This document shows positions 801 to 64,000 of a stretch of 64,000 nt of DNA, piece after piece. The DNA is from Escherichia coli. Its GTDB lineage: Bacteria > Pseudomonadota > Gammaproteobacteria > Enterobacterales > Enterobacteriaceae. Every line of letters begins with the position of its first letter. Within the stretch, counting starts at the first letter, position 1. A program made the translations under genes and the position numbers. The stretch lies in assembly GCF_050320075.1 (NCBI RefSeq), contig NZ_CP190018.1. One strand, given 5' to 3'. The notes below the pieces were generated by a model. It worked only from the letters and a program-made list of their open reading frames with translations, was not told where the DNA came from and did no database searches.

Positions 801-1044
801 TTTCCGCGTCATGCTTCACGCCGCAGATGCGTTGGCTGCGCTCGTTCACCCCAGTCACATAGTTATCTATGCTCCTGGGGCTTCACTCACTTGCCGCGTG
901 ATTCGGCCTTTTGGCCTCACCCCTTTGGGGCCAGCGCAAGCGCTGTTCAAAACGCAATGCGTTTTGTCCTGCAACGCGAATCATTTAGCGGAAAAATCCT
1001 GGGGCTGCCAACTGGCGGCCCTTTTACAAAGAAGGATAACTAAA

Positions 1045-2446: not shown

Positions 2447-3223
2447 ATGTCCGAAACAAAAAACGAACTTGAAGATCTGCTGGAAAAAGCAGCAACCGAA
2501 CCGGCGCACCGCCCGGCCTTTTTCCGTACTCTACTGGAATCCACCGTCTGGGTGCCGGGTACGGCGGCGCAGGGCGAGGCTGTGGTTGAAGATAGCGCGC
2601 TTGATTTACAGCACTGGGAAAAAGAAGACGGCACCAGCGTCATTCCTTTTTTTACCTCGTTAGAAGCACTTCAACAGGCGGTTGAAGACGAACAGGCATT
2701 TGTCGTAATGCCCGTTCGCACATTGTTTGAGATGACCCTTGGCGAAACGCTCTTCCTTAATGCCAAACTGCCAACCGGTAAAGAATTTATGCCGCGTGAA
2801 ATCAGTTTGTTGATTGGTGAAGAAGGAAATCCGCTGAGCAGCCAGGAAGTACTGGAGGGCGGTGAATCGCTGATATTATCGGAAGTCGCAGAGCCGCCAG
2901 CACAAATGATTGATTCACTCACCACCTTATTTAAAACTATTAAGCCGGTGAAGCGTGCTTTTATTTGTTCAATTAAAGAGAACGAAGAGGCACAGCCTAA
3001 TTTACTTATTGGCATTGAAGCCGATGGTGATATCGAAGAAATTATTCAGGCGGCGGGAAGTGTAGCGACCGATACATTACCTGGCGATGAACCCATCGAT
3101 ATTTGTCAGGTGAAAAAAGGGGAAAAAGGAATTAGCCACTTTATTACCGAACATATTGTGCCATTCTATGAACGTCGCTGGGGTGGTTTTTTGCGTGACT
3201 TTAAACAGAACCGGATAATCTAA
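2447..3223 (+). CDS. sseB: SseB protein (enhances serine sensitivity)
   Basis: ORF 2438-3223; ATG at 2447 gives 258 aa beginning MSETKNELEDLLEKAA; synteny next to pepB and sseA. Confidence 0.85.
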   Translation: MSETKNELEDLLEKAATEPAHRPAFFRTLLESTVWVPGTAAQGEAVVEDSALDLQHWEKEDGTSVIPFFTSLEALQQAVEDEQAFVVMPVRTLFEMTLGETLFLNAKLPTGKEFMPREISLLIGEEGNPLSSQEVLEGGESLILSEVAEPPAQMIDSLTTLFKTIKPVKRAFICSIKENEEAQPNLLIGIEADGDIEEIIQAAGSVATDTLPGDEPIDICQVKKGEKGISHFITEHIVPFYERRWGGFLRDFKQNRII

Positions 3224-3299
3224 AATATGCCGCCCTAAAGGGCGGCATTCGGGCTTACTTGCTGCTCTGAAGGTTGTTAACCACCAGTAAATTGTTGCC

Positions 3300-3660
3300 G
3301 GAGAGACTCCGGTTATTATTTACCTCGGTTAACAGCGCACCAGAAACAATAAGTACGATACAAAAGCACCGTATCTTCATTGTGCGGTCCATGCGAAGAC
3401 CGCATCACGACAGCACCACTGGCGATATTGCCGCGATAGCAAGCACTGTGGGGTGTCTGCATTTACGGTCATGGAACATCCTTTCCTAAAGCCAGCGCCC
3501 GTTTGCGAGACGGCGAAAAGGGCCGTCACGAATAATACTCTCATGTTTGAATAATTACTCTGTTTATTATCTTGACATAGCCAGGCATAAAAGAGAGTAT
3601 TTCAACACTGTGGGGTGCCTGCGTTGCTCCAGCAACACAAGTCAACCAGCTGGAAAGGCC
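3300..3660. ncRNA. candidate small RNA locus in the sseB-sseA intergenic region (ryfA-like position); strand and ends uncertain
   Basis: 500-bp non-coding gap with a TTGACA box near 3572, an internal 18-bp repeat (about 3445 and 3606) and a flanking bidirectional terminator; ryfA is recalled to lie between sseA and sseB in K-12. Confidence 0.3.
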
Positions 3661-15257: not shown

Positions 15258-16376
15258 ATGCATAACCAGGCTCCAATTCAACGTAGAAAATCAACACGTA
15301 TTTACGTTGGGAATGTGCCGATTGGCGATGGTGCTCCCATCGCCGTACAGTCCATGACCAATACGCGTACGACAGACGTCGAAGCAACGGTCAATCAAAT
15401 CAAGGCGTTGGAACGTGTTGGCGCTGATATCGTCCGTGTCTCAGTACCGACGATGGACGCGGCAGAAGCGTTCAAACTCATCAAACAGCAGGTTAACGTG
15501 CCGCTGGTGGCTGACATCCACTTCGACTATCGCATTGCGCTGAAAGTAGCGGAATACGGCGTCGATTGTCTGCGTATTAACCCTGGCAATATCGGTAATG
15601 AAGAGCGTATTCGCATGGTGGTTGACTGTGCGCGCGATAAAAACATTCCGATCCGTATTGGCGTTAACGCCGGATCGCTGGAAAAAGATCTGCAAGAAAA
15701 GTATGGCGAACCGACGCCGCAGGCGTTGCTGGAATCCGCCATGCGTCATGTTGATCATCTCGATCGCTTGAACTTCGAACAGTTCAAAGTCAGCGTGAAA
15801 GCGTCAGACGTCTTCCTCGCTGTTGAGTCTTATCGTTTGCTGGCAAAACAGATCGATCAGCCGCTGCATCTGGGGATCACCGAAGCGGGTGGTGCGCGCA
15901 GCGGGGCGGTTAAATCCGCCATTGGTTTAGGTCTGCTGCTGTCTGAAGGCATTGGCGACACGCTGCGCGTATCGCTGGCGGCCGATCCGGTTGAAGAGAT
16001 CAAAGTCGGTTTCGATATTTTGAAATCGCTGCGTATCCGTTCGCGCGGGATCAACTTCATCGCCTGTCCAACCTGTTCGCGTCAGGAGTTTGATGTTATC
16101 GGTACGGTTAACGCGCTGGAGCAACGCCTGGAAGATATCATCACTCCGATGGACGTTTCGATTATCGGCTGTGTGGTGAATGGCCCAGGTGAGGCGCTGG
16201 TTTCTACACTCGGCGTCACCGGCGGTAACAAGAAAAGCGGCCTCTATGAAGATGGCGTGCGCAAAGACCGTCTGGACAACAACGATATGATCGACCAGCT
16301 GGAAGCGCGCATTCGTGCGAAAGCCAGTCAGCTGGACGAAGCGCGTCGAATTGACGTTCAGCAGGTTGAAAAATAA
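15258..16376 (+). CDS. ispG: 4-hydroxy-3-methylbut-2-enyl diphosphate synthase
   Basis: 372-aa [26 protein letters not shown]...; C-terminal Fe-S cysteines CPTCSR. Confidence 0.95.
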
Positions 16377-16486
16377 TAACGTGATGGGAAGCGCCTCGCT
16401 TCCCGTGTATGATTGAACCCGCATGGCTCCCGAAACATTGAGGGAAGCGTTGAGGGTTCATTTTTATATTCAGAAAGAGAATAAAC

Positions 16487-24526: not shown

Positions 24527-26104
24527 ATGACGGAAAACATTCATAAGCATCGCATCCTCATTCTGGACTTCGGTTCTCAGTATACTCAACTGGTTGCGCG
24601 CCGCGTGCGTGAGCTGGGCGTTTACTGCGAACTGTGGGCGTGGGATGTGACAGAAGCACAAATTCGTGACTTCAATCCAAGCGGCATTATTCTTTCCGGC
24701 GGCCCGGAAAGCACCACCGAAGAAAACAGCCCGCGTGCGCCGCAGTATGTCTTTGAAGCAGGCGTACCGGTATTCGGCGTTTGCTATGGCATGCAGACCA
24801 TGGCAATGCAGTTGGGCGGTCACGTTGAAGCCTCTAACGAACGTGAATTTGGCTACGCGCAGGTTGAAGTCGTAAACGACAGCGCACTGGTTCGCGGTAT
24901 TGAAGATGCTCTGACCGCAGACGGTAAACCTCTGCTCGATGTCTGGATGAGCCACGGCGATAAAGTTACCGCTATCCCGTCCGACTTCGTCACCGTAGCC
25001 AGCACCGAAAGCTGCCCGTTTGCCATTATGGCTAACGAAGAAAAACGCTTCTATGGCGTACAGTTCCACCCGGAAGTGACTCACACCCGCCAGGGTATGC
25101 GCATGCTGGAGCGTTTTGTGCGTGATATCTGCCAGTGTGAAGCCCTGTGGACGCCAGCGAAAATTATCGACGATGCTGTAACTCGCATCCGCGAGCAGGT
25201 AGGCGACGATAAAGTCATCCTCGGCCTCTCTGGTGGTGTGGATTCCTCCGTAACCGCAATGCTGCTGCACCGCGCTATCGGTAAAAACCTGACTTGCGTA
25301 TTCGTCGACAACGGCCTGCTGCGTCTCAACGAAGCAGAGCAGGTTCTGGATATGTTTGGCGATCACTTTGGTCTCAATATTGTTCACGTTCCGGCAGAAG
25401 ATCGCTTCCTGTCAGCGCTGGCTGGCGAAAACGATCCGGAAGCAAAACGTAAAATCATCGGGCGCGTTTTCGTTGAAGTATTCGATGAAGAAGCGCTGAA
25501 ACTGGAAGACGTGAAGTGGCTGGCGCAGGGTACTATCTACCCTGACGTTATCGAATCTGCGGCGTCTGCAACCGGTAAAGCACACGTCATCAAATCTCAC
25601 CACAACGTGGGCGGCCTGCCGAAAGAGATGAAGATGGGCCTGGTTGAACCGCTGAAAGAGCTGTTCAAAGACGAAGTGCGTAAGATTGGTCTGGAGCTGG
25701 GCCTGCCGTACGACATGCTGTACCGTCACCCGTTCCCGGGACCAGGCCTTGGCGTTCGTGTTCTGGGTGAAGTGAAGAAAGAGTATTGTGACCTGCTGCG
25801 CCGTGCTGACGCCATCTTCATTGAAGAACTGCGTAAAGCGGACCTGTACGACAAAGTCAGCCAGGCATTCACCGTCTTCCTGCCGGTACGTTCCGTTGGC
25901 GTAATGGGCGATGGTCGTAAGTATGACTGGGTTGTTTCTCTGCGTGCTGTCGAAACCATCGACTTTATGACCGCACACTGGGCGCATCTGCCGTACGATT
26001 TCCTCGGTCGCGTTTCCAACCGCATTATCAATGAAGTGAACGGTATTTCCCGCGTGGTGTATGACATCAGCGGCAAGCCACCAGCTACCATTGAGTGGGA
26101 ATGA
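24527..26104 (+). CDS. guaA: GMP synthase (glutamine-hydrolysing)
   Basis: 525-aa ORF with GATase catalytic cysteine (GVCYGMQ) and ATP-PPase motif SGGVDSS; C-terminus ...PATIEWE intact. Confidence 0.95.
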
Positions 26105-26149
26105 TTAACAGCTAACTCATAGCAAATCATTCCTATTCAGATGCCAACT

Positions 26150-26296: not shown

Positions 26297-27547
26297 GTGC
26301 TTACCGATACAAAATTAAAAAACCTCAAGCCGCAGGACAAACTGTACAAGGTCTCCGATCGTGACGGGCTGTATGTAGCTGTGCTTACGTCAGGCACGGT
26401 CTCATTTCGTTATGACTACCGTATCAACGGTCGCCGCGAAACACTGGTAATCGGGCAGTATGGGCGTGACGGTATCAGCCTGGCAGAAGCGCGGGAAGAA
26501 CTGATTGCTGCAAAGAAGCTGCTTAAAGCAGGCCAGTCACCGGCTGCGGCTAAACGTGACGGTATCAAAAAGATTCGTGGTGCCGAAACGTTTGCGGTAC
26601 ATACCGACAGTTATATGAAACACGTCATCCTGGCTGAAAGTACCCGCGCAATGAAGCAGGCAGTGATCGACCGTGACATACTTCCGGTTCTTGGCAACAA
26701 AATGATGGCTGAAATTACCACATCGATGGTTCGTGATTTGTGTGACCGGATTGTCGAACGCGGTGGCCGGGCAACAGCAGTGCAGGCCAGGGAGATCATC
26801 AGCAGCGTATACCATCACGCCAATGACCGTGGTCATGGTTTGTTTAATCCTGCGGCTGACATTAAGCCTTCGTCTATCGCCATATTTAAACCACGAGAGC
26901 GAACACTGACACCAGAAGAAATTGGCCTGTTCTTCCGCACGTTGGATGCCATTGGTGCTATGGGCACTATGAAAATGGCTTTAAAACTGGTGCTTATCAC
27001 TATGGTTCGTAAGGGCGAATTCACCAATGCAACGTGGGATGAAATAGATTTTAAAAAATGGACATGGACAATTCCTTCAGACCGCATGAAGGGAAGCCGG
27101 GCGCATGTTATTTACCTGCCTAAACAGGCTCAGGATATATTGGTCGGGTTGCAGATGTGCGCTGGTGGAAGTGAATATCTGGTTCCTGGTCGTTACAATT
27201 TCCGGAAGCCATTATCTAATGCCGCGCTGAACTCTCTGATCGACAGAACGGTGAAAATAATAAATGAAGATGGTGAGCATATTCAGGATTTCACCGTACA
27301 CGATATGCGCCGTACAGCCAGTACGTTGTTGCATGAGGCTGGTTATCCTTCAGACTGGATTGAAAAGGCTCTGGCACATGAGCAGAAAGGTGTGCGCGCC
27401 GTATATAACAAAGCGGAATACGCCAGACAGCGCGCCTACATGTTGCAGCAGTGGGCCGATATGATAGATTCCTGGATTAACGGGGAGCATACGGATCTGA
27501 TTCCGTTCTCCCCGTCGAAGTTTGAGAAGTGGATGGCGAGGGAATAA
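26297..27547 (+). CDS. int: tyrosine integrase (P4-type, arm-binding N-terminal domain)
   Basis: 416-aa ORF; N-terminus TDTKLKNLKPQDKLYKVSDRDGLYVAV; catalytic HxxR (HDMRRT) and C-terminal Tyr region; lies at the prophage-host junction. Confidence 0.9.
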   Translation: MLTDTKLKNLKPQDKLYKVSDRDGLYVAVLTSGTVSFRYDYRINGRRETLVIGQYGRDGISLAEAREELIAAKKLLKAGQSPAAAKRDGIKKIRGAETFAVHTDSYMKHVILAESTRAMKQAVIDRDILPVLGNKMMAEITTSMVRDLCDRIVERGGRATAVQAREIISSVYHHANDRGHGLFNPAADIKPSSIAIFKPRERTLTPEEIGLFFRTLDAIGAMGTMKMALKLVLITMVRKGEFTNATWDEIDFKKWTWTIPSDRMKGSRAHVIYLPKQAQDILVGLQMCAGGSEYLVPGRYNFRKPLSNAALNSLIDRTVKIINEDGEHIQDFTVHDMRRTASTLLHEAGYPSDWIEKALAHEQKGVRAVYNKAEYARQRAYMLQQWADMIDSWINGEHTDLIPFSPSKFEKWMARE

Positions 27548-29091: not shown

Positions 29092-30033
29092 TTACATAGA
29101 TGTTTCGTTTAATTCTTCCCGACGAACGCTGTAAACGTCGGTGGCTTTTGCCAGCAGTTCGTCATCATCTGAAAGTTTTTGTGCAATGTATTTGTAAGCC
29201 TTATCCAGTTCGGAGACAGTGCTGTAATTCATCGCTGCGCTGGTAAAGGCCATCAGCATTTCTTCTGGATCACGGCTGTCCGATTTACGCGTTTGCTCAT
29301 CAGGCTTTTTCGCTGGTTTAGCGTTGATCAGACTGTTCATTCCCGCAGCAGTGGTCGTTTGCGGAGTAATGTCTCGCTCAACGCGCGGTGCCGTTTCCTG
29401 TAATTCGTCTGGGGTGTAGACGCCCATGATTACGTCAGGACAGTGCAGGCGAGACCAGCGTTTTGTCGCAAGGTATGCGAGTTGTTGTTTCGGATCACTG
29501 GCCCAAAGTGTGGAGTTTCTTACCTGTGCTTGAGACAGCATTAACTCAAGCACTCGAGGTTGATCCTCGCCCTTCATGGTTGCCCATACGCGAACACCGC
29601 AGCCTTCTTCGTCTTTTAGAGTCCAGCCTGGTGCGATATATGGATTGCCGTTTTTGGATGTTTTCTCAACAAACTTACCGATCACGCGTTCCCACGGCCC
29701 GAACCACTCGTAGTTGATGCGATCTTTTGTTGGCGACATCGTTGAGATAACTGCGTTTACTAATTGGGCTTCATAACCTAGCGTGCCGTTCACAACATGG
29801 GTTTTCTGAGCCACGGCAAACGGGTTCATTCCCCACTGCGCAGCCTGCATTGCCACGGCCATGCAATCAGCTGGTTTCCCGGCGAGGTGCGCCGGTACCG
29901 TTACGCGGCTTTGCGCCATTACCTCGGCGAATTTCATCAGTTGGTTCAAGCCGTCTGGGCTGAAAATAGTTGCAGCAGTTCCAGCGATTGCTGTGTCTAC
30001 TGGTGCGTTGATGTTTGCGATGTCGTTGCTCAT
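29092..30033 (-). CDS. RecT-family single-strand annealing recombinase
   Basis: ORF 29092-30060; start placed at the Met directly following the stop of the upstream exonuclease gene; RecT-like sequence (...GTLGYEAQLVNAVISTMSP...). Confidence 0.75.
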   Translation of the reverse strand: MSNDIANINAPVDTAIAGTAATIFSPDGLNQLMKFAEVMAQSRVTVPAHLAGKPADCMAVAMQAAQWGMNPFAVAQKTHVVNGTLGYEAQLVNAVISTMSPTKDRINYEWFGPWERVIGKFVEKTSKNGNPYIAPGWTLKDEEGCGVRVWATMKGEDQPRVLELMLSQAQVRNSTLWASDPKQQLAYLATKRWSRLHCPDVIMGVYTPDELQETAPRVERDITPQTTTAAGMNSLINAKPAKKPDEQTRKSDSRDPEEMLMAFTSAAMNYSTVSELDKAYKYIAQKLSDDDELLAKATDVYSVRREELNETSM

Positions 30034-30851
30034 ATGTACATATCCTGTTTGCGTGCCCACTCAGGGCGTTTAATGATTTCCACACCGCCCCATTCATCAT
30101 TGATGCGGCATTCGTGATAGGTATTCAGATCCCGGCGGAACAGAGCGTGCCCGGCATCGACATCCTGCGCATCCAGCTCGAACACGCGTACCGGATACCG
30201 ACCACAATCAATGCTTTCGCTCACGGCAAGAAAGAAAAAACCATGCGGCTGACCAGTAACCCTCATTGCGCCTTCGCGGTACATTGCGTCCTGCACGTGG
30301 TAGCGGAATTCCTCGATGTGGCGTGCAAAACGGTCCATATCTGCAACCTTTTTCACGTCGACGATCACGTTGTGCTCGTTCAGCCATTTGTCTGGACGAA
30401 TTCGGCACAACTCCCCCGTCTCTTCATCGTTCCAGTACATTGATGCTTCGCAGTAACCAGGTGCTTCCAGCATCCAGCGTGCCGCCGGGTGAGCCATTGC
30501 GCTATCACGCATCAGCTCCAGTTTCCGCCACTGCTCGGCATCAAGTACCGTAATCCCCATATCCGCCACATCACGAAGAAATTCCTCTTCGTCAGCTTTA
30601 CCTTGTTTCGTCCGACGATCGAATTTCGGTGAAACAATGAAGCGTTTGTCGAACTCTCCAGGCTCCAGAAGCAGACAGTGCAATGCGGTTCCCATATCCA
30701 GTGCAGACTTTTTCTCTTCGTCTTCTGGTGCTGCCTGAACCCATTTAAGAAGCGCCGGATTCTTGGCAACCATGTCCAGTTGCGACTTACTCACGCCGTC
30801 ACCGGCGTGGTAGTCTTCGTTGCTGATGTCGAAATAAATTCCCGGTTTCAT
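30030..30851 (-). CDS. PD-(D/E)XK exonuclease (RecE/YqaJ-like recombination exonuclease)
   Basis: 273-aa protein MKPGIYFDISNEDYHAGDGVSKSQLD...; pairs with the downstream RecT as a RecET-like module. Confidence 0.7.
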   Translation of the reverse strand: MKPGIYFDISNEDYHAGDGVSKSQLDMVAKNPALLKWVQAAPEDEEKKSALDMGTALHCLLLEPGEFDKRFIVSPKFDRRTKQGKADEEEFLRDVADMGITVLDAEQWRKLELMRDSAMAHPAARWMLEAPGYCEASMYWNDEETGELCRIRPDKWLNEHNVIVDVKKVADMDRFARHIEEFRYHVQDAMYREGAMRVTGQPHGFFFLAVSESIDCGRYPVRVFELDAQDVDAGHALFRRDLNTYHECRINDEWGGVEIIKRPEWARKQDMYI

Positions 30852-31302: not shown

Positions 31303-31409
31303 AACTTGTTACCTCGGTCTGTTACCGTTGAGGTAATAATTATGCGTATATGGTTTGATGTCAATAGATATGAGTTAAAAAAATTACCCGTTAGGTAATC
31401 GAATAGGCA

Positions 31410-31435
31410 ATAAAAAAGCCGCCATAAGGCGGCTT
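31410..31435 (-). terminator. intrinsic terminator after the repressor gene
   Basis: Hairpin gccgccataaggcggc followed on the minus strand by a U-run. Confidence 0.6.
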
Positions 31436-31455
31436 ACTTACTGAAAAATATGGTT

Positions 31456-32040
31456 TTATTGTTTGTTTTTTTCGTTCTGGTTGATGACAAATTCAATGTA
31501 ACTTTCGATCTTTGCTTTCTCGGTTTCGGGTAACAATGCGTAGCGCGAGCGATCATAGTTGATGGTCGCAGGGTCGTGCGGGTGAATCAGTAATTCATAG
31601 CCGTGACGCCCGAATGCGGATGCAACATTCTCCAGGGTGGAAATGGAAACGCTGACCTCATTGTTTAACAGGCGGCTGATTGTCACCTGGGCTACGCCGG
31701 ATGCGCGGTGAAGTTTTCCCTGTGTTGAAAGGTCGCGGCTTTCGCTCATCCAGCGTTCCAGGTTGTGAGCCGCCAGCTGGCCAATGTCGCTTGGGCCGAC
31801 AGGCTGAAAACCTTCCTGAGAAAGCGAGCGATCGATATCAAGCCAGTTACGGGGTTTATTGGCGGCAGCTTCAATTTTTCGCGCAACCTGATCGCCGATA
31901 ACCTTCTTACCAAGAGCCCAGCGGTTTACCAGATTTGCCTGAGTTCCAAGTTTTTCAGCCATCCGCGTCTGAACACCATTGAATTCACGGTCGATCAAGT
32001 CGTTGAGATTTTGCCTGCGGACGTCCTGGATACTTTTCAT
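31456..32040 (-). CDS. prophage repressor candidate (CI-like), tandem HTH domains, no recognisable S24 peptidase domain
   Basis: 194-aa protein; HTH-like segments QTRMAEKLGTQANLVNRWALGKK and LHRASGVAQVTISRLLNNEVSVSISTLENVASAFG; divergent from a Cro-like gene across an operator-rich gap. Confidence 0.65.
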   Translation of the reverse strand: MKSIQDVRRQNLNDLIDREFNGVQTRMAEKLGTQANLVNRWALGKKVIGDQVARKIEAAANKPRNWLDIDRSLSQEGFQPVGPSDIGQLAAHNLERWMSESRDLSTQGKLHRASGVAQVTISRLLNNEVSVSISTLENVASAFGRHGYELLIHPHDPATINYDRSRYALLPETEKAKIESYIEFVINQNEKNKQ

Positions 32041-32194
32041 TTTCTGGAAAATCGCCTCATATATGAATCAGTAGATGATTCAATTTAAAGCAATATTACC
32101 CAACAGGTAAATGCACCTCATGGGTAACTATCCTTGATTTTTGTTACCTTATGGGTGAATATTTATTATCTGAAATAAATATCAGGCAATAGCT
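32041..32194. promoter_or_regulatory. divergent repressor/cro control region with three palindromic operator-like sites
   Basis: TTACC-caaca-GGTAA (32096-32110), gCACC-tcatg-GGTAA (32113-32127), TTACC-ttatg-GGTGA (32144-32158) between the divergent genes. Confidence 0.55.
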
Positions 32195-32425
32195 ATGAGC
32201 GATAACGGACATTTCGATTTCAAAAAGCACTGGCTTGCACTTACTCCGGATGAGCGTGAAGCCTTCGCACAGGAAGCCGGAACGACGAGTCACTATATCC
32301 AGACTCACTTAACAGGTAAGCGCAAAATGCCAGGTAAAGTATTGATGAATGGGCTTTTTAAAGCCTGTAAAACAAGACAATGGCTGCGCTCAAAAGCAGA
32401 ACTGGCATACTTCTTCTACTCATGA
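32195..32425 (+). CDS. Cro/CII-like small HTH regulator
   Basis: 76-aa ORF directly across the operator region from the repressor; HTH-like segment AQEAGTTSHYIQTHLTGKRK. Confidence 0.5.
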   Translation: MSDNGHFDFKKHWLALTPDEREAFAQEAGTTSHYIQTHLTGKRKMPGKVLMNGLFKACKTRQWLRSKAELAYFFYS

Positions 32426-34389: not shown

Positions 34390-34506
34390 TACCAGCGCGA
34401 TAGCGCATTTTTTTACGTCTATATGATTACCTGGAAGGTAATAAAATGTTCTAATCTCTATTGATTTCATGTCTTATGTGGTTTTTAATTACCTAAGGGG
34501 TAAATC

Positions 34507-40644: not shown

Positions 40645-40847
40645 AGTCTAATCTCACCTTAAAAAAATGCCCGGCGAACCGGGCGAACTGGAAGCAATGA
40701 GTTATGCCTTCCGTGGCTGTACTGGTTTACAGCATGAAGTCATCGCAATGGCGTCCTGCTGTAAAAAGGGCGGTGATAGTCCTTCAAGGGAAACCATCAC
40801 CGCCAAGCACCTGGAACTTCTGGCATCACGGTCCTTAGGCGTGATTC

Positions 40848-40924
40848 TGGCGTGGCATGCAGGATTCGAACCTGCGACCAACCGCTTAGAAGGCGGTTGC
40901 TCTGTCCAACTGAGCTAATGCCAC
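40848..40924 (-). tRNA. tRNA-Arg (anticodon UCU), phage-encoded
   Basis: Manual cloverleaf: acceptor GTGGCAT/ATGCCAC, D-arm GCTC/GAGC, anticodon stem ACCGC/GCGGT, loop CTTCTAA (UCU), T-arm GCAGG-TTCGAAT-CCTGC, discriminator G, CCA encoded; closely resembles host argU. Confidence 0.85.
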
Positions 40925-45245: not shown

Positions 45246-45296
45246 CGCCTGTTATTAACCTGTGGGCCGCAACAGGCCCACTAATGGAGAAAGAAG

Positions 45297-58977: not shown

Positions 58978-59664
58978 TCAGAAGAACCCTGCTTTGTCGT
59001 TGATGTACTCCGCGTGCGTCTGGATATCACGCAGGCATTTACTCACACCGACGATGTAGCAGAACATGGTGGTCAACTCCGCCGCCGCGCCCGATACGTC
59101 GTGCCCGTCGTCCTGTAACTGGTTCAGCAAATTCATCAGCAGTGAGTTCTCCGTCAGGCCGAGAACACCAGACGGCGAATGAATCAGGCTACGGTAGCCG
59201 GGCTTCAGTGGGGCGCTGTAGGTTTTGTTCTCTATCTTCATTGCCTGCATCACTGCTGATGCTGTGGCGTTGGCTACCTGGTCGGCAACCATCTTTATGC
59301 GTTCTTCCTGCGGGAGCGAGTTTTTAATGTAACTTCCGGTGCGGCGGATCTGAGGAAGAACCTCACCTGTAACCCATTTGCGAAAGCGGTAGGGGATAGT
59401 GCCTGGTGTTACTGCATCGCGGCAGCGGAGGATCAGTGTGTAGAGGCCTGACTCGTTGATAATATTGGTTTCGCCTTGACGGCCTAAGTTAAATTTAGCC
59501 CTTTCATCATCATCAAGAGATTTTATTGACATAGTGGGGTTTGTCAGTTGAAGAGCTTTAATAACGTCTTTGGCAACAAACCAAGGATTTCCATCAATAA
59601 CAATGGCTCGAATGGTTGCTTCTGATTCAAAATGAAAAACAGATGGGGTTACGTTAGCAGTCAT
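58978..59664 (-). CDS. antirepressor (Bro-N domain protein)
   Basis: ORF 58978-59817; start placed at the ATG giving MTANVTPSVFHFESEATIRAIVIDGNPWFVAKDVIKALQL... (Bro-N signature); AAGGTGA SD. Confidence 0.7.
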   Translation of the reverse strand: MTANVTPSVFHFESEATIRAIVIDGNPWFVAKDVIKALQLTNPTMSIKSLDDDERAKFNLGRQGETNIINESGLYTLILRCRDAVTPGTIPYRFRKWVTGEVLPQIRRTGSYIKNSLPQEERIKMVADQVANATASAVMQAMKIENKTYSAPLKPGYRSLIHSPSGVLGLTENSLLMNLLNQLQDDGHDVSGAAAELTTMFCYIVGVSKCLRDIQTHAEYINDKAGFF

Positions 59665-59817
59665 AGTGATCACCTTTGTAGTTAGGTTAATCACCACTAC
59701 CGACGCCAATCGGTTGGTGGTGAACTGTGCAGGGTTGGCGTAACCGGCTACAAAGGACCCGGCGCACCTTTCGGTGCCCCCACACAGCCCACCATAGAAT
59801 AGGTGCGCTTTACACAT

Positions 59818-59838
59818 AAAAAAAACCGCTTATGCGGC
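59818..59838 (-). terminator. intrinsic terminator after the 90-aa gene
   Basis: Hairpin ccgcataagcgg followed on the minus strand by eight U. Confidence 0.5.
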
Positions 59839-59977
59839 ATATGTGCCTCTGTAGTAACTCGGGACGCCAATCCCGGCACTGGATTTTGCCAGTGCCCGAT
59901 TACTATGGCACAAGAGGAGTGCGTTGTAAATTTACCGCAAAGGTAAATATAAGCACTCCACTTGGCAATTGCAAACC

Positions 59978-60250
59978 TTATCTGGTTTGTTTTCGTAATT
60001 GTTCGGCACAATAGTCGAGATGTGTTTGCAGATCCCGCATAGACATCTGTGAGCTGGTGACGTAGTTAATCAGTGCAGTCAGTTCGGCAAGTGGGCCATC
60101 GACATTAAATCCATCCTTATCGAGATCCCGGAGTAATTTCATCAAGTGCGATCCCTCCACCAGTGACCTGACGCCTCCCGGCGTGTGAATCCTTTCGGTA
60201 AATCCGTCTTCCAGTGGATAGTGATACTGCTGCATCTTAATCTTCTCCAT
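59978..60250 (-). CDS. small protein similar to the C-terminal region of the adjacent antirepressor
   Basis: 90-aa ORF; LMKLLRDLDKDGFNVDGPLAELTALINYV...RDLQTHLDY parallels LMNLLNQLQDDGHDVSGAAAELTTMFCYI...RDIQTHAEY in the Bro protein. Confidence 0.45.
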   Translation of the reverse strand: MEKIKMQQYHYPLEDGFTERIHTPGGVRSLVEGSHLMKLLRDLDKDGFNVDGPLAELTALINYVTSSQMSMRDLQTHLDYCAEQLRKQTR

Positions 60251-60431
60251 GCAATAACTGTATATTTATACAGTATCAAATAATTTGTTTGCTATCCAGC
60301 ACGTTTTGCAAATTACCTGAAAGGTAATATCTATTCATATTCACAGTCTTTCTATCCATATATGGTTTTTTGGGTAATAGAATAACCAGATATGCGGCGC
60401 AACGGGTGCTGCGACTATCTGGAGATTTAAC

Positions 60432-63275
60432 ATGACGGTCTCAACCGAAGTTGACCACAACGAATACACAGGTAACGGCGTTACGACATCGTTTCCGTAT
60501 ACTTTTCGAATTTTCAGAAAATCAGACCTGGTTGTTCAGGTGTCTGACCTGAACGGGAACGTAACAGAATTGGTTCTGGATACCGGTTATACGGTAACTG
60601 GGGCGGGCACTTATAGTGGCGGTTCAGTGGTTCTGCCGTCTCCGCTTGCTGCTGGCTGGCGAATTACGATAGATCGTGTGCTTGATGTAGTGCAGGAGAC
60701 AGACCTCCGCAATCAGGGAAAGTTTTTCCCCGAAGTGCATGAAGATGCCTTTGACTACCTGACGATGCTGATCCAGCAATGTTTTGGGTGGTTCAGACGT
60801 GCATTGATGAAGCCCTCTCTGCTTGCAAAATATTACGATGCAAAGCAAAACAGAATTTCTAACCTTGCAGATCCATCACTTGAGCAGGACGCTGTAAATA
60901 ATCGCTCAATGCGTAATTATGTCGATGCTGCAATCGCCGGAGTTGTTGGTGGTTTTGGTTGGTTTATTCAGTATGGTTCTGGGGCAGTATATCGCACCTT
61001 CCAGGACAAGATGCGAGATGAAATAAATGTTCATGATTATGGTGCTATAGGTGATGGAAATTATCACCCGCTTTCTGAACGTTATTCATCGTTGGCTGCT
61101 GCGCAGCAACAATATCCATTTGCTACTTCCCTTGGTCAGTCTATTGACTGGGCTGCAATACAGGCAGCGATCAATGCCTCACAAGGCAGAAAGGTAAAAT
61201 TATTAGCAAAAACATACATTTCTACTGATGGATTCACTGGCGTTGATGGTCTTTGTTTAATTGGTGAAGGTGCTACCCCTTTTTACCTTAACTTTCAGGA
61301 CATTCCATACACCAACAATGGTGGTACTGACATTCTTTTCTATGGTACAGGCCAAAAGAACAGAAGCATTTATGGTATTTCGGATATGCAGCCATCCGGT
61401 GGTGTGAGGACAGATCCTGATTTAGGCGTGACTCATGCATTAACCAATATGACGAATGGAGACGCCAGCACTTCGGCGGCTGCAACCCCTCGAGCAGTAA
61501 GCGCTGGCTTATACCTTGAGCATTGCAAAGGCTGGCAAATTGAGGGAATCCGATTTGCTCCATATTTTAACGGGGTCGAATCATATACAGACCAGACTAA
61601 CTTAGGGCTGGCTGATGAATGGGATATCGGAATTCTCATCAATAGTTCTTATGATGGTGTAATGCGCGATGTTCGCGCGGTTGGGCACTGGCGAGTTGCT
61701 GGCCTGGCTGTGTTTGCAGGCGAAAATCCTTTCAACACAGGCGCGTCATCTTCATGTGAACGAAACAGATTTTTTTCCTGTCAGTTTAATGGAAAGTCTG
61801 GCGTTCTTATTCGCGGCGGGGATGCCTACCGGTGTACAGCAGTAACAGCTGACACTGTCGAAATTCCATGGCACGATTCAAACCCGTTCCGGCATACCGG
61901 TGGGGTATTTCTTGGGGCCTTTGGTGGCGCAACCTCTGCAAGCTATACCTATACCAGCGCAACGGTTACCGGTGATAAGCTGACGCTCCACGGAGTAAGC
62001 CCTAACCCTTTATCGAATGGTATGACAACATCTTCAGGGGTGTATACCGGTAGAAGTTATGGGTTCCAGGGTACGCAATTCTTTGGTTGTTACTTTGGCG
62101 GCCTTGAGCATCAGACTAACCGAGTGGCTACAGACCCGGCGCTTACCTCACCATTCCCTACGTCGTCAAAACCTGTCGAAATTTCAGGTGTTCCGGCAGG
62201 AAATATCAGGTTCTATGGTTGTACGCACATGACCCGGGAAGACTGTGTGTGGATGATCCATAACGCCTCAAATATCTACGACTTCGGAGGCTATTTTGAG
62301 GCCAAGCGAGCGATCACTGCTACTGGCGGCGGCTCGCGCATGGTAGCCATCGGTAATTGGCCTGATTACACCCCGACTGCAGAATCACCATATCCGTTTG
62401 GTACGGTCAGTAACATAAATATGTTCGGTTCGCAGGCTCTTAATTTCGTTGATATGTACCCTGTAGTTGCCCGTTCTACAGGTGTAACGCGCTTTACCTC
62501 CGGGATGTGGGATTGTAAGACCCTCTATAGCTCCGAGGCATTTCAGGATCTTGCTGACACCAACAACTATGTAATAAAGGGTTTACGAAACGAAAGCATA
62601 AGGTTCGAGGACGGAGCCGGCGGCCATCTTATGACCATGCAGAATATTGGCAATCTCCTGCTTGGTAAGCGCGCCAGATTTAACACCTCAACAGAGGATC
62701 GTTATCAGTTCTATCGACTCGATGGAACAACCATTTTCTTATCCCTCGATGGCACGATGTCCACGCCAGTAATGACTCTGGATGGAAACTTTGTCCCTGC
62801 AGTTGCCAATACAAGGTTGGTCGGAACTGCGGCCAAGCCCTTCTCGGGAGGTAATACCCAGACAGCTTATAACATCACTTCTGACCGGAACTACAAAACT
62901 GACTTTGGTGAAATTCCTGACGCCGTTCTGGATGCATGGGAATTGGTGCAGTATTCACAATATAAACTCAGGGATGCAGTTGCGTTGAAGGGGGAAGGCG
63001 CCAGATTACATGTCGGTGTTGTTGCACAGCAGGTGAAAGAGGCATTTGAATCAGTAGGGGTCGATCCTTTTGCATATGGCGTACTGTGCTACGACGAATG
63101 GTCTGGTCAGGAAGAAGTTATTGAGGACGGTGTCATTACGCAGCAAAAAGTGGAAGCAGGGAAGCGTTACAGTGTGCGCTACGAAGAGGCATATGCAATA
63201 GAGTCCGCCTTGCTTCGGAGAACTCATACCAGATTGGAGCAGCGCTTATCTTCTCTTGAAGAAAAATCAAAATAG
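60432..63275 (+). CDS. tailspike/tail fibre protein with C-terminal S74 intramolecular chaperone domain
   Basis: 947-aa ORF; conserved podovirus N-terminal region; C-terminal ...NITSDRNYKTDF... autoproteolysis motif (Ser/Lys dyad) typical of Peptidase_S74 chaperone domains. Confidence 0.8.
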   Translation: MTVSTEVDHNEYTGNGVTTSFPYTFRIFRKSDLVVQVSDLNGNVTELVLDTGYTVTGAGTYSGGSVVLPSPLAAGWRITIDRVLDVVQETDLRNQGKFFPEVHEDAFDYLTMLIQQCFGWFRRALMKPSLLAKYYDAKQNRISNLADPSLEQDAVNNRSMRNYVDAAIAGVVGGFGWFIQYGSGAVYRTFQDKMRDEINVHDYGAIGDGNYHPLSERYSSLAAAQQQYPFATSLGQSIDWAAIQAAINASQGRKVKLLAKTYISTDGFTGVDGLCLIGEGATPFYLNFQDIPYTNNGGTDILFYGTGQKNRSIYGISDMQPSGGVRTDPDLGVTHALTNMTNGDASTSAAATPRAVSAGLYLEHCKGWQIEGIRFAPYFNGVESYTDQTNLGLADEWDIGILINSSYDGVMRDVRAVGHWRVAGLAVFAGENPFNTGASSSCERNRFFSCQFNGKSGVLIRGGDAYRCTAVTADTVEIPWHDSNPFRHTGGVFLGAFGGATSASYTYTSATVTGDKLTLHGVSPNPLSNGMTTSSGVYTGRSYGFQGTQFFGCYFGGLEHQTNRVATDPALTSPFPTSSKPVEISGVPAGNIRFYGCTHMTREDCVWMIHNASNIYDFGGYFEAKRAITATGGGSRMVAIGNWPDYTPTAESPYPFGTVSNINMFGSQALNFVDMYPVVARSTGVTRFTSGMWDCKTLYSSEAFQDLADTNNYVIKGLRNESIRFEDGAGGHLMTMQNIGNLLLGKRARFNTSTEDRYQFYRLDGTTIFLSLDGTMSTPVMTLDGNFVPAVANTRLVGTAAKPFSGGNTQTAYNITSDRNYKTDFGEIPDAVLDAWELVQYSQYKLRDAVALKGEGARLHVGVVAQQVKEAFESVGVDPFAYGVLCYDEWSGQEEVIEDGVITQQKVEAGKRYSVRYEEAYAIESALLRRTHTRLEQRLSSLEEKSK

Positions 63276-63771: not shown

Positions 63772-64000
63772 GTTTTTTTTGCTTATCACCAATGCAGTTA
63801 TTTGTACTGGCATAGCAATTCGCGTTGTCACATTCCGGCGTAACGGATCTCAATATCGAAGATTGGGGGGATGGCTTGCTTATTTCCTGATTGTCGCTGC
63901 GGCAAGTATTCCTGTTCGTGTCGTCTATGCAATCTGGTTACGCACGCCAATGGCTGTGGATTTATCCGAGGTCATTATCAATGCTGTCATGCTTGCTGCG
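63768..64000 (+). CDS. membrane protein, N-terminal fragment (continues beyond window)
   Basis: Manual translation MSFFLLITNAVICTGIAIRVVTFRRNGSQYRRLGGWLAYFLIVAA...; ATG overlaps the upstream stop. Confidence 0.35.

Follow-up and report, generated by a model that had tools for sequence, protein, structure and literature searches.

How does a prophage leave lysogeny if its repressor carries no recognisable autocleavage domain? This question is raised by a 194-aa protein, here called Rep, encoded in the 64,000 nucleotide window of Escherichia coli DNA analysed here (contig NZ_CP190018.1), where E. coli chromosomal DNA gives way, at the 3' end of guaA, to an integrated phiV10/epsilon15-like (Uetakevirus) prophage (Table 1). 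An earlier note on this DNA had paired the protein with a distant Bro-N antirepressor, and had proposed induction by antirepression rather than by RecA-dependent autocleavage.

Table 1. Features of the prophage immunity region and of the distant antirepressor cassette, with positions in the window.
Feature	Position	Strand	Basis or remark
attL core ATTGAGTGGGAATGATT, left prophage boundary at guaA 3' end	26090-26106	+	exact match to ZX5 att core (PMC9782041)
Integrase gene	26297-27547		ORF list; adjoins left prophage boundary
OL-like region, two perfect TTACC-N5-GGTAA palindromes (31322-31336, 31384-31398)	31322-31398		sequence scan
Rho-independent terminator after rep, AAGCCGCC-TTAT-GGCGGCTT then T run	31411-31436	-	read from sequence
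rep, 194-aa prophage repressor	31456-32040	-	ORF, Pfam, PDB match
OR-like region between rep and cro-like gene	32096-32158		palindromes, sequence scan
cro-like small regulator, 76 aa, divergent from rep	32195-32425	+	phrog_35 'transcriptional repressor', E=5.6e-13
Bro-N::Ant-like fusion protein, 228 aa	58978-59664	-	Pfam Bro-N, E=1.3e-19
Bro-N gene leader with two predicted C4 targets	59673-59709	-	complementarity, covariation
C4-type antisense RNA (P1 c4 / P4 CI class)	59713-59799	-	Rfam RF01695, 79.5 bits (gathering score 45)
isrK-type RNA (P4 seqA-like)	59819-59895	-	Rfam RF01394, 74.2 bits (gathering score 50)
Predicted σ70 promoter of isrK-C4-broN::ant transcript, TTTACA-17-CATAGT with TG	59902-59930	-	scan
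Perfect TTACC-N5-GGTAA palindrome abutting -35 of isrK promoter	59932-59946		sequence scan
ant, 85-aa small antirepressor, SPC32H Ant orthologue	59978-60235	-	PDB match, alignments
Predicted LexA (SOS) box TACTGTATAAATATACAGTT (ant strand)	60256-60275		18/20 to consensus
Perfect TTACC-N5-GGTAA palindrome, gap between ant promoter and tailspike gene	60313-60327		sequence scan
Tailspike gene	60432-63275		ant lies antisense just upstream

The rep interval coincides exactly with an open reading frame of 194 aa that starts with ATG. In a Pfam scan of its product, HTH_3 was matched at residues 106–147 (E=4.9e-5), where matches to LacI and HTH_26 overlap, a weaker YdaS/HTH_3 match covered residues 21–67, and neither Peptidase_S24 nor any other C-terminal family was found. 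An S24 match was likewise absent in PHROGs, whose matches to Rep are families of transcriptional regulators and repressors (phrog_8, E=4.5e-27), and in NCBIfam, where no model scored above cut-off. The earlier statement that no autocleavage domain is recognisable therefore holds, as only HTH families are matched in Pfam. Rep is 100% identical to the repressors gp40 of phage phiV10 and ORF21 of phage vB_EcoP_ZX5 (ZX5), and a phmmer search of the PDB aligned its residues 1–190 with residues 2–197 of the crystallised Rep protein of Salmonella phage SPC32H (5D50_A/5D4Z 'Repressor', E=4e-42). Identity with SPC32H Rep is about 42% overall, being 52% in the DNA-binding, 33% in the middle and 43% in the C-terminal domain, with the domain names (DNA-binding, middle dimerisation, C-terminal tetramerisation/Ant-binding) taken from PMC9986798. 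Both proteins share the recognition helix NLVNRW, and the aromatic residues F187 and F190, located in the C-terminal helix at the tetramer interface of SPC32H Rep (PMC9986798), align with Y181 and F184 of Rep.

From this alignment, Rep is predicted to consist of an N-terminal HTH domain (residues ~1–75), a middle HTH-like dimerisation domain (~91–150) and a C-terminal tetramerisation/Ant-binding domain (~151–194). With regard to the two HTH-like segments pointed out earlier, both are matched by Pfam, but the second of them is the counterpart of the middle, dimerising domain of SPC32H Rep (PMC9986798), and is thus probably not a second DNA-reading head. Judged by its sequence, Rep would be the non-cleavable maintenance repressor of this phiV10/epsilon15-like E. 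coli prophage, for which cleavage is not expected, and overexpression of the identical ZX5 protein abolished free phage (PMC9782041). The surroundings of the gene have counterparts in related phages: an equivalent of the terminator after rep is annotated in phiV10, the divergent cro-like gene is the equivalent of PhiV10p41, and synteny with both SPC32H and phiV10 is kept throughout.

The antirepressor cassette is encoded in antisense orientation, flanked by the tail genes on one side and by the tailspike gene on the other, so that its description as a late-region moron block is fair. Its small ORF, given in the earlier note as a paralogue of the Bro-N protein at 59978–60250, is indeed a true paralogue of the C-terminal part of that protein (41–44% identity, tblastn E=6e-14), and phrog_450 is matched by both. 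It also matches PDB entry 5D50_E ('Anti-repressor protein') with 87% identity (E=1.6e-46) and the SPC32H ant locus with 86.7% identity in tblastn, and is 98.8% identical to its phiV10 and ZX5 relatives; no Pfam or NCBIfam model was found for it. The start of ant is most likely ATG 60235, giving 85 aa, rather than ATG 60250, because it agrees with phiV10 gp24 and SPC32H Ant and has a GGAG (60245–60248) 9 nt upstream, and because the upstream ATG abuts the predicted LexA box. Homologues of Rep and Ant co-occur in the same ~35 phage records. As a separate observation, TL-2011b and HEMP4 have a third Ant-like place.

The predicted LexA box lies directly upstream of ant with both its CTGT and ACAG cores perfect, and is the sole match in the 64 kb at three or fewer mismatches, with none found in 100 shuffles. 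It is conserved in the same alignment columns in SPC32H, phiV10, TL-2011b and Tyrion, and has one core mismatch in a Klebsiella phage. A scan for CTGT-N8-ACAG with one mismatch allowed gave a chance-level count (20 found, 21 expected), and only the site at 60258–60273 combines an AT-rich spacer with AT-rich flanks; two other sites with perfect cores, at 40717 and 45260, are not taken to be LexA boxes, since their spacers are GC-rich or non-consensus. A σ70 consensus scan around the box found no clear promoter, and the ant promoter hexamers were not confidently located. The earlier note proposed a search for a LexA box upstream of the antirepressor gene; such a box precedes the small ant gene, but not the Bro-N gene. 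LexA would be expected to bind here and to control ant.

We consider it highly probable that Rep is not cleaved, but is inactivated by the small antirepressor Ant, which is predicted to be under LexA/SOS control and is encoded far from the immunity region. By homology with SPC32H, Rep would be a tetramer, with the N-terminal HTH recognising palindromic operators, the second HTH-like domain serving for dimerisation, and the short C-terminal domain both for tetramerisation and for binding the antirepressor. In a lysogen, host LexA would sit on the near-consensus SOS box of the ant promoter, ~28 kb from rep and beside the tailspike gene; DNA damage would remove LexA and allow Ant to be made, which would bind the C-terminal domains of Rep, pull it off the DNA and so start the lytic programme. 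In the SPC32N variant, a mutation in the box reportedly leads to constitutive induction. Secondary sources describe SPC32H Ant as being under LexA control and as a tetramer which binds to dimers of Rep and breaks up its tetramer (PMC7380047, PMC9638917, bioRxiv 10.1101/2025.11.27.690993). Binding between Rep and Ant of the present phage is extrapolated from that system, and since its Rep and SPC32H Rep share only ~42% identity, the Ant-Rep contacts are assumed. The proposal of antirepressor-mediated induction is hence supported by the Rep/Ant homology and the LexA box, but its choice of antirepressor has to be changed: the first partner of the repressor would be the small 85–90-aa protein and not the Bro-N protein, as the LexA box adjoins the small ORF, which is the orthologue of a proven antirepressor.

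The Bro-N gene was correctly placed at 58978–59664 on the minus strand. Its product carries a Bro-N domain (PF02498) at residues 18–104 and an Ant paralogue domain at residues ~147–223, the latter matching 5D50_E with E=1.9e-13, and from residue ~72 to 228 it is almost identical to ZX5 ORF4. The Rfam isrK match starts 7 nt after the end of the -10 box in the promoter predicted for the Bro-N transcript. The isrK RNA has its own terminator (59825–59838 plus a T run) and contains UACAGAGG and UUGGCGU, each complementary to C4, which pairs through its loop CCUUUGUAG and through the single-stranded ACGCCAA. The two C4 targets in the Bro-N gene leader are UUGGCGU (59703–59709) and CUACAAAGG (59673–59681), the latter overlapping the Shine-Dalgarno sequence of ATG 59664, where the loop CCUUUGUA(G) is complementary to (C)UACAAAGG. 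The isrK and C4 pair is also present in phiV10, ZX5, TL-2011b and Tyrion: in phiV10, ZX5 and TL-2011b one base is deleted jointly in the C4 loop, the isrK copy and the leader, and in Tyrion ACGCCAA/UUGGCGU is changed to AGACCAA/UUGGUCU in all three places. This three-way covariation, which is based on five sequences and about three independent events, argues that C4 pairs with the ribosome-binding site of the Bro-N gene. With regard to translational coupling, no clear orf45/icd-type ORF was found upstream of the Bro-N gene; ATG 59817 opens a 279-aa ORF which runs through C4 in frame with the Bro-N ATG, and in ZX5 a 38-aa 'ash family' ORF is annotated, in a different frame. The fusion is probably a second, RNA-gated antirepressor.

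A shared palindrome connects these loci, as OL, OR and both antirepressor promoters are all marked by TTACC-N5-GGTAA. The two OL-like copies are 62 bp apart and lie ahead of the early-left operon, and the OR-like region has a perfect copy (32096–32110), one with a single mismatch (32144–32158) and an imperfect copy at ~32113–32127. In the cassette, the palindrome at the isrK promoter has its centre at about -44 relative to the 5' end of isrK, with half-sites invariant and spacer variable in five phages, and the same pattern was seen for the copy between ant and the tailspike gene in 6/6 aligned phages. SPC32H has syntenic OL sites, three such sites at the OR position and also one in its ant/tailspike intergenic region. 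Further sites of this type are at 34427, 34489, 38082, 41248 and 58878. We take the palindromes to be putative Rep operators, and the copy close to the ant promoter hints at an influence of Rep itself on the transcription of ant or of the tailspike gene.

A rival reading makes the Bro-N protein the main induction trigger and the small protein a minor paralogue of it. The C-terminal domain of the fusion is an Ant paralogue, overexpression of the near-identical ZX5 ORF4 lowered lysogeny, with a fall in prophage titre from 1e9 to 1e6 and a 75% reduction in rep transcription (PMC9782041), and since no terminator was predicted between ant and isrK, SOS-driven read-through could feed the Bro-N cassette. 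We nevertheless consider this reading unlikely, as no LexA box precedes the Bro-N gene itself, which sits behind the isrK terminator and would have its Shine-Dalgarno sequence masked by C4. It is also missing from SPC32H, epsilon15 and one Klebsiella relative and frameshifted within the Ant-like domain in phiV10 (gp23), and hence cannot be what this phage family depends on for induction; in SPC32H, the reported inducer is the small Ant.

With small Ant as the SOS trigger, the Bro-N::Ant gene would be transcribed from its own promoter together with the isrK/C4 pair, with C4 masking its ribosome-binding site, and its product would most likely be an accessory antirepressor, reinforcing or anti-immunity in role. 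An extension of this, which we put forward tentatively and regard as somewhat doubtful, is a two-tier antirepression in which small Ant fires first and Bro-N::Ant reinforces or broadens its action on the same C-terminal target of Rep, its promoter carrying a probable Rep operator and its translation being gated by the isrK/C4 pair.

Two further readings were rejected. Self-cleavage of Rep, stimulated by RecA and acting through a divergent peptidase domain, has the general lambda paradigm in its favour and the ~45 C-terminal residues that match no Pfam family, but is extremely improbable, as the whole of Rep including its C-terminus aligns with SPC32H Rep, whose C-terminal domain is a small beta-alpha tetramerisation module and no peptidase (PMC9986798), and as two HTH domains in 194 aa leave no room for an S24 fold. 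Equally hard to credit is an antitoxin or another HTH regulator in place of an immunity repressor: a weak sub-threshold HigA match (18.7 bits, cut-off 47.7) and the name 'plasmid maintenance system antidote protein VapI' in the GenBank record of BP9 are outweighed by the location of the gene, which takes the place of cI opposite a divergent cro-like gene and has putative palindromic operators on either side, by orthology with SPC32H Rep, by the block of lytic growth by the identical ZX5 protein and by the absence of an adjacent toxin gene.

The nearest known system is that of SPC32H, reportedly described genetically by Kim and Ryu in 2013 (J Virol 87:11775) and structurally by Kim et al. in 2016 (PNAS 113:E2480). 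Both phages have an orthologous three-domain repressor next to a cro-like gene and an orthologous 85–86-aa antirepressor encoded antisense just upstream of the tailspike gene, although the host here is E. coli, the repressors have diverged, and SPC32H does not have the isrK-C4-Bro-N::Ant cassette which here follows ant. The switch is consequently of an already known type and offers no new repressor biology, which makes the original observation correct but ordinary. Within E. coli phages, ZX5 also has the same guaA attachment core, and its ORF21 and ORF4 were tested through overexpression (PMC9782041). The phiV10 annotation names gp40 a 'putative transcriptional repressor, two helix-turn-helix motifs' and gp23 a 'putative anti-immunity protein', and small Ant is labelled only 'hypothetical protein' in the records examined, e.g. 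those of phiV10 and ZX5. Differences from phiV10 and ZX5 concern the fusion and its RNA gate: residues 1–70 of the window Bro-N protein represent another mosaic allele, the C4 loop and its targets are of the CCUUUGUAG type shared with Tyrion, one base longer than the phiV10/ZX5 type, and the fusion is not truncated as gp23 is.

The earlier analogy with Gifsy-type systems is apt, as Gifsy-1/Gifsy-3 (GfoR-GfoA, GfhR-GfhA) and coliphage 186 (Tum) likewise combine an uncleaved repressor with a LexA-controlled small antirepressor encoded outside the immunity region (PMC3121763); the likeness established is one of logic, and the Gifsy proteins reportedly interact as dimers, in contrast to the tetramers of SPC32H Rep and Ant. 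Fels-1 FsoA, an antirepressor which is controlled by the phage repressor and not by LexA, resembles the palindrome-flanked Bro-N cassette. The analogy with P22 Ant (immI; Mnt, Arc, sar RNA) does not extend beyond an antirepressor which is encoded far from immC and able to override repression: no common domain was found in Pfam, where Bro-N is the only match of the 228-aa protein and the 85-aa protein has none, and regulation is by Mnt, Arc and sar in P22 compared with predicted LexA and isrK/C4 control here. In P22, ant is outside LexA control, and SOS induction can do without it because the C2 repressor is RecA-cleavable (PMC7380047). The RNA gate has its own parallels in Gifsy-1 isrK-orf45-anrP, P1/P7 immI (c4-icd-ant) and P4 seqA-CI-seqC, where isrK/C4 elements also lie directly upstream of a Bro-N antirepressor-like gene and C4 has complements on both sides, upstream in an isrK copy and downstream in an RBS copy; here, however, the effector domain is a paralogue of SPC32H-type Ant, and the cassette immediately follows an ant gene with predicted LexA control. 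The C4 specificity types of P1 and P7 differ by compensated changes, as do the two types seen here.

What is modestly new is therefore a side observation, the isrK/C4-gated Bro-N::Ant fusion and the phage-wide TTACC-N5-GGTAA putative operators, which if confirmed would make the SPC32H model more precise for the branch comprising E. coli and Enterobacter. The two-tier circuit may not have been described as such before in this E. coli lineage, and if it exists, an isrK/C4 pair with at least two specificity types would provide a P1/P7-like second immunity layer over Rep immunity. As E. coli Rep is identical to an already annotated and overexpressed repressor, the value here lies in annotation: the immunity region is found at ≥95% identity in 540 of the 5,426 complete E. 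coli genomes, where Rep carries just the label 'helix-turn-helix domain-containing protein' and Ant that of 'hypothetical protein', and Ant has no model in Pfam or NCBIfam. Predictions of prophage induction based on S24 would therefore misjudge ~10% of E. coli genomes.

The 194-aa protein that the earlier note had put forward as the prophage repressor (Rep) aligned over residues 1-190 with PDB 5D50 chain A and 5D4Z, 'Repressor' (E=4e-42), in a solved-structure search. The structures are of the Rep/Ant pair from SPC32H, an epsilon15-like Salmonella phage whose GenBank record has genes named rep and ant at positions syntenic to those in the window. Rep falls in repressor and regulator families in PHROGs, with no NCBIfam model over cut-off, and in the Pfam scan residues 106-147 matched HTH_3/HTH_26/LacI-type helix-turn-helix families (E about 5e-5) and residues 21-67 gave a weaker YdaS/HTH_3 match, which bears out the two HTH-like segments noted earlier; the reading frame was likewise confirmed. 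The same scan, which the note had asked for, found neither Peptidase_S24 nor any other non-HTH family in Rep, as predicted. PMC9986798 divides SPC32H Rep into a DNA-binding domain at the N-terminus, a dimerisation domain in the middle and a C-terminal 'CAD' that serves both for tetramerisation, through Phe187 and Phe190, and for Ant binding; papers citing the original SPC32H work further describe SPC32H Rep as working as a tetramer, in which the N-terminal domains on each palindrome belong to different dimers. In a global alignment of the two repressors the DNA-binding domains were 52% identical and shared the putative recognition helix NLVNRW; identity was 33% for the middle domain and 43% for the C-terminal domain, in which Tyr181 and Phe184 of the window protein take the positions of Phe187 and Phe190. 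Since Rep aligns with the SPC32H domains, the second HTH-like segment would be the middle dimerisation domain, and the C-terminus is predicted from the alignment to be a small tetramerisation/Ant-binding module, with which a cryptic peptidase is rejected. Rep has the same sequence (100% identity) as phiV10 gp40, which carries the annotation 'putative transcriptional repressor; two helix-turn-helix motifs; similar to epsilon15p38', and as ORF21 of the related phage ZX5, overexpression of which abolished free phage and lowered transcription of lysis genes by >99.9% (PMC9782041).

The partner of Rep was found in the small ORF at 59978-60250 (-), the product of which matches 5D50 chain E, 'Anti-repressor protein' (E=1.6e-46), and is, as the earlier note had it, paralogous to the Bro-N protein, the similarity covering the last ~80 residues of the latter (41-44% identity, E=6e-14). 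The start of this ant gene is almost certainly ATG 60235, giving an 85-aa product, because phiV10 gp24 and SPC32H ant are annotated with matching starts and GGAG lies 9 nt upstream, while ATG 60250 is disfavoured by the lack of a Shine-Dalgarno sequence and by its place right next to the candidate LexA box. Homologues of Rep were found in the same ~35 phage records (E. coli, Salmonella, Enterobacter and Klebsiella) as those of Ant, and Ant relatives in a large protein collection are confined to the Enterobacteriaceae and mostly named 'hypothetical protein'. The SPC32H orthologues differ in identity (Rep ~42% vs Ant 87%), which points to a conserved surface as the target of Ant, and Ant may act across phages of the SPC32H-type family, as reported for Gifsy antirepressors.

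A loose scan for CTGT-N8-ACAG was uninformative (20 matches vs 21 expected), and the perfect cores at 40717-40732 and 45260-45275 were judged to be chance matches by their non-AT spacers and non-consensus flanks. The full 20-mer LexA consensus had a single match in 64 kb at <=3 mismatches, and none in 100 shuffles; this box is located directly upstream of ant, and not of the Bro-N gene where the earlier note had proposed to look for it. When the ant-tailspike intergenic regions of this prophage and of phiV10, TL-2011b, SPC32H, Tyrion (an Enterobacter phage) and a Klebsiella phage were aligned, the LexA box fell in the same columns in 6/6, the half-sites being invariant save for one base in the Klebsiella phage. 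PMC7380047, citing Kim and Ryu 2013, describes LexA self-cleavage leading to production of the antirepressor, which inhibits the repressor via protein-protein contact. We consider it highly probable from these sequence comparisons that the prophage uses the SPC32H mechanism, in which LexA would repress ant, DNA damage would release Ant, and Ant would disassemble uncleaved Rep; some doubt remains because Rep has diverged far more than Ant. The proposal of antirepressor-mediated induction is thus upheld by the Rep/Ant homology and the LexA box, but had been assigned to the wrong one of the listed genes. The system fits the SPC32H Rep/Ant family in every respect testable from sequence; of the two likenesses proposed earlier, the Gifsy type holds, as the prophage shares its logic with the LexA-antirepressor systems of Gifsy and phage 186 (PMC3121763), whereas it is not a relative of P22 Ant.

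Features of the prophage and its chromosomal flank
Feature	Position	Strand	Remarks
ryfA, sroE	3222-3526, 16376-16467	-, +	host sRNA genes, chromosomal flank
guaA	24527-26104		chromosomal flank
Attachment core ATTGAGTGGGAATGATT	26090-26106		17 bp
Integrase gene	26297-27547		next after attachment core
rep	31456-32040	-	194 aa
Bro-N gene	58978-59664	-	Bro-N domain E=1.3e-19
C4 antisense RNA	59713-59799	-	Rfam, well over gathering threshold
isrK RNA	59819-59895	-	Rfam, well over gathering threshold
ant	59978-60235	-	start refined
Candidate LexA box TACTGTATAAATATACAGTT	60256-60275	ant strand	18/20 consensus positions
Palindrome sites listed	26240, 31322, 31384, 32096, 32144, 32481, 34427, 34489, 38082, 38100, 41248, 58878, 59932, 60313		15 nt each
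Perfect palindromes	31322, 31384		62 bp apart, just beyond rep terminator, OL-like
Perfect palindrome	32096		between rep and cro-like gene; 1-mismatch copy 32144, imperfect copy in between
Perfect palindromes	34427, 34489		62 bp apart, after replication genes
Perfect palindromes	38082, 41248		near terminase and portal gene starts
Perfect palindrome	58878		after Bro-N gene
Perfect palindrome	59932		abuts -35 of isrK promoter; centre near -44
Perfect palindrome	60313		between ant promoter and tailspike gene

At <=1 mismatch the window contains 15 copies of the palindrome TTACC-N5-GGTAA vs 1.0 expected; 0/100 shuffles reached 15, and the ten perfect copies all fall within the prophage. Phage alignments showed invariant half-sites with a variable 5-nt spacer, and the perfect palindromes of SPC32H are all intergenic (10/10, in a genome that is 94% coding), at positions corresponding to those in the window. 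As the palindromes surround rep and the recognition helix is conserved, Rep is the obvious candidate binder and the palindrome is probably its operator, which would make Rep a genome-wide silencer. Rep could either repress from the site at the isrK promoter or activate, as lambda CI does at PRM, since the palindrome is centred near -44. The palindromes are almost exclusively at prophage operon starts, with several pairs spaced exactly 62 bp.

The Bro-N gene, which was as the earlier note described it, encodes a Bro-N::Ant-like fusion, since SPC32H Ant is matched over its whole length by the C-terminal residues 147-223 of the product (E=1.9e-13). Between ant and the Bro-N gene, and on the strand of these genes, lie the isrK and C4 RNAs, with a predicted σ70-like promoter (TTTACA-17-CATAGT, with TG) ending 7 nt before the isrK start. 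The loop of the second C4 hairpin, CCUUUGUAG, is the exact complement of CUACAAAGG (59673-59681), a target overlapping the Shine-Dalgarno sequence in front of the Bro-N ATG, and the single-stranded ACGCCAA of C4 is complementary to UUGGCGU at 59703-59709; isrK also holds copies of both targets. The cassette is also present in phiV10, ZX5, TL-2011b and Tyrion, and comparison of the five revealed three-way compensation between C4, the isrK copy and the Bro-N leader: in phiV10, ZX5 and TL-2011b one base is missing together in all three, while the second pairing element of Tyrion differs by two substitutions that are matched by compensating changes (C4 AGACCAA, UUGGUCU in both targets). There are at least two specificity types of the cassette (window 59673-59895 (-)), with the C4 loop CCUUUGUAG in the window and Tyrion and CCUUUUAG in phiV10, ZX5 and TL-2011b, resembling the immI heteroimmunity of P1/P7. 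The cassette follows the logic of P4 seqA/CI/seqC and P1 c4 and shares its arrangement with the Gifsy-1 isrK-orf45-anrP locus, where IsrK controls translation of a Bro-like antirepressor able to induce Gifsy-1 (PMC4825925).

ORF4 of ZX5 is almost identical to the Bro-N protein from about residue 72 on, and its overexpression lowered the prophage titre from 1e9 to 1e6 and rep transcription by 75% (PMC9782041), and hence the fusion is probably functional where intact. It cannot be the essential inducer of the family, as the cassette is absent from SPC32H, epsilon15 and one Klebsiella relative and the phiV10 gene is frameshifted; we infer that it is an accessory antirepressor, which either reinforces commitment or counters resident immunity on superinfection. 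On the minus strand of the cassette no terminator other than that of isrK is predicted, and with none predicted between ant and isrK, read-through from ant could couple the fusion to SOS. The phiV10 frameshift is inside the Ant-like C-terminal domain of gp23, 'anti-immunity protein' (2658-3242 in the phiV10 record, L002), which has 194 aa vs 228-234 aa in the window, ZX5, TL-2011b and Tyrion, so this reference phage is probably without a working second antirepressor. Residues 1-70 of the Bro-N protein are a mosaic allele unlike ZX5, phiV10 and TL-2011b, the remainder being almost identical to theirs, a pattern that indicates recombination within the gene. A frame from ATG 59817 (window 59664-59817 (-)) runs through the C4 gene and shares the reading frame of the Bro-N start, so that the ORF as a whole has 279 aa; in ZX5 a 38-aa 'ash family protein' is annotated in another frame of this region. 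Both were considered as a coupling ORF of the orf45/icd kind, but no clear orf45 counterpart was found.

The repressor with its two HTH motifs and missing cleavage domain, and likewise the antirepressor mechanism, are already in the literature or GenBank. The second antirepressor is perhaps noteworthy, as no description of an isrK/C4-gated, palindrome-flanked Bro-N::Ant fusion was found in the literature searched. The rep region was found in 540/5,426 complete E. coli genomes, in which Rep and Ant are practically unnamed, a gap in annotation that may likewise deserve mention.

The first ~26 kb of the window are E. coli chromosome, and the attachment core is that given for phage vB_EcoP_ZX5 at the guaA 3' end (PMC9782041). 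From the integrase to the window end the sequence is a phiV10/epsilon15-like podovirus prophage of the genus Uetakevirus, with 98-100% nucleotide identity in the immunity region to phiV10, ZX5, PAS61, O157 typing phages 9 and 10 and others; it continues beyond position 64000, and attR is thus outside the window. The chromosomal flank also has a match to Aggregatibacter sRNA 22, barely over threshold (902-974 (-)). Within the prophage a tRNA gene (40851-40924 (-)) lies between the terminase and portal regions, and the syntenic gene in SPC32H is annotated as tRNA-Arg. At 29092-30851 (-) the RecT-like protein (322 aa) and exonuclease (273 aa) are encoded by separate overlapping ORFs, whereas phiV10 is annotated with one fused 'recET' gene of 1761 bp.
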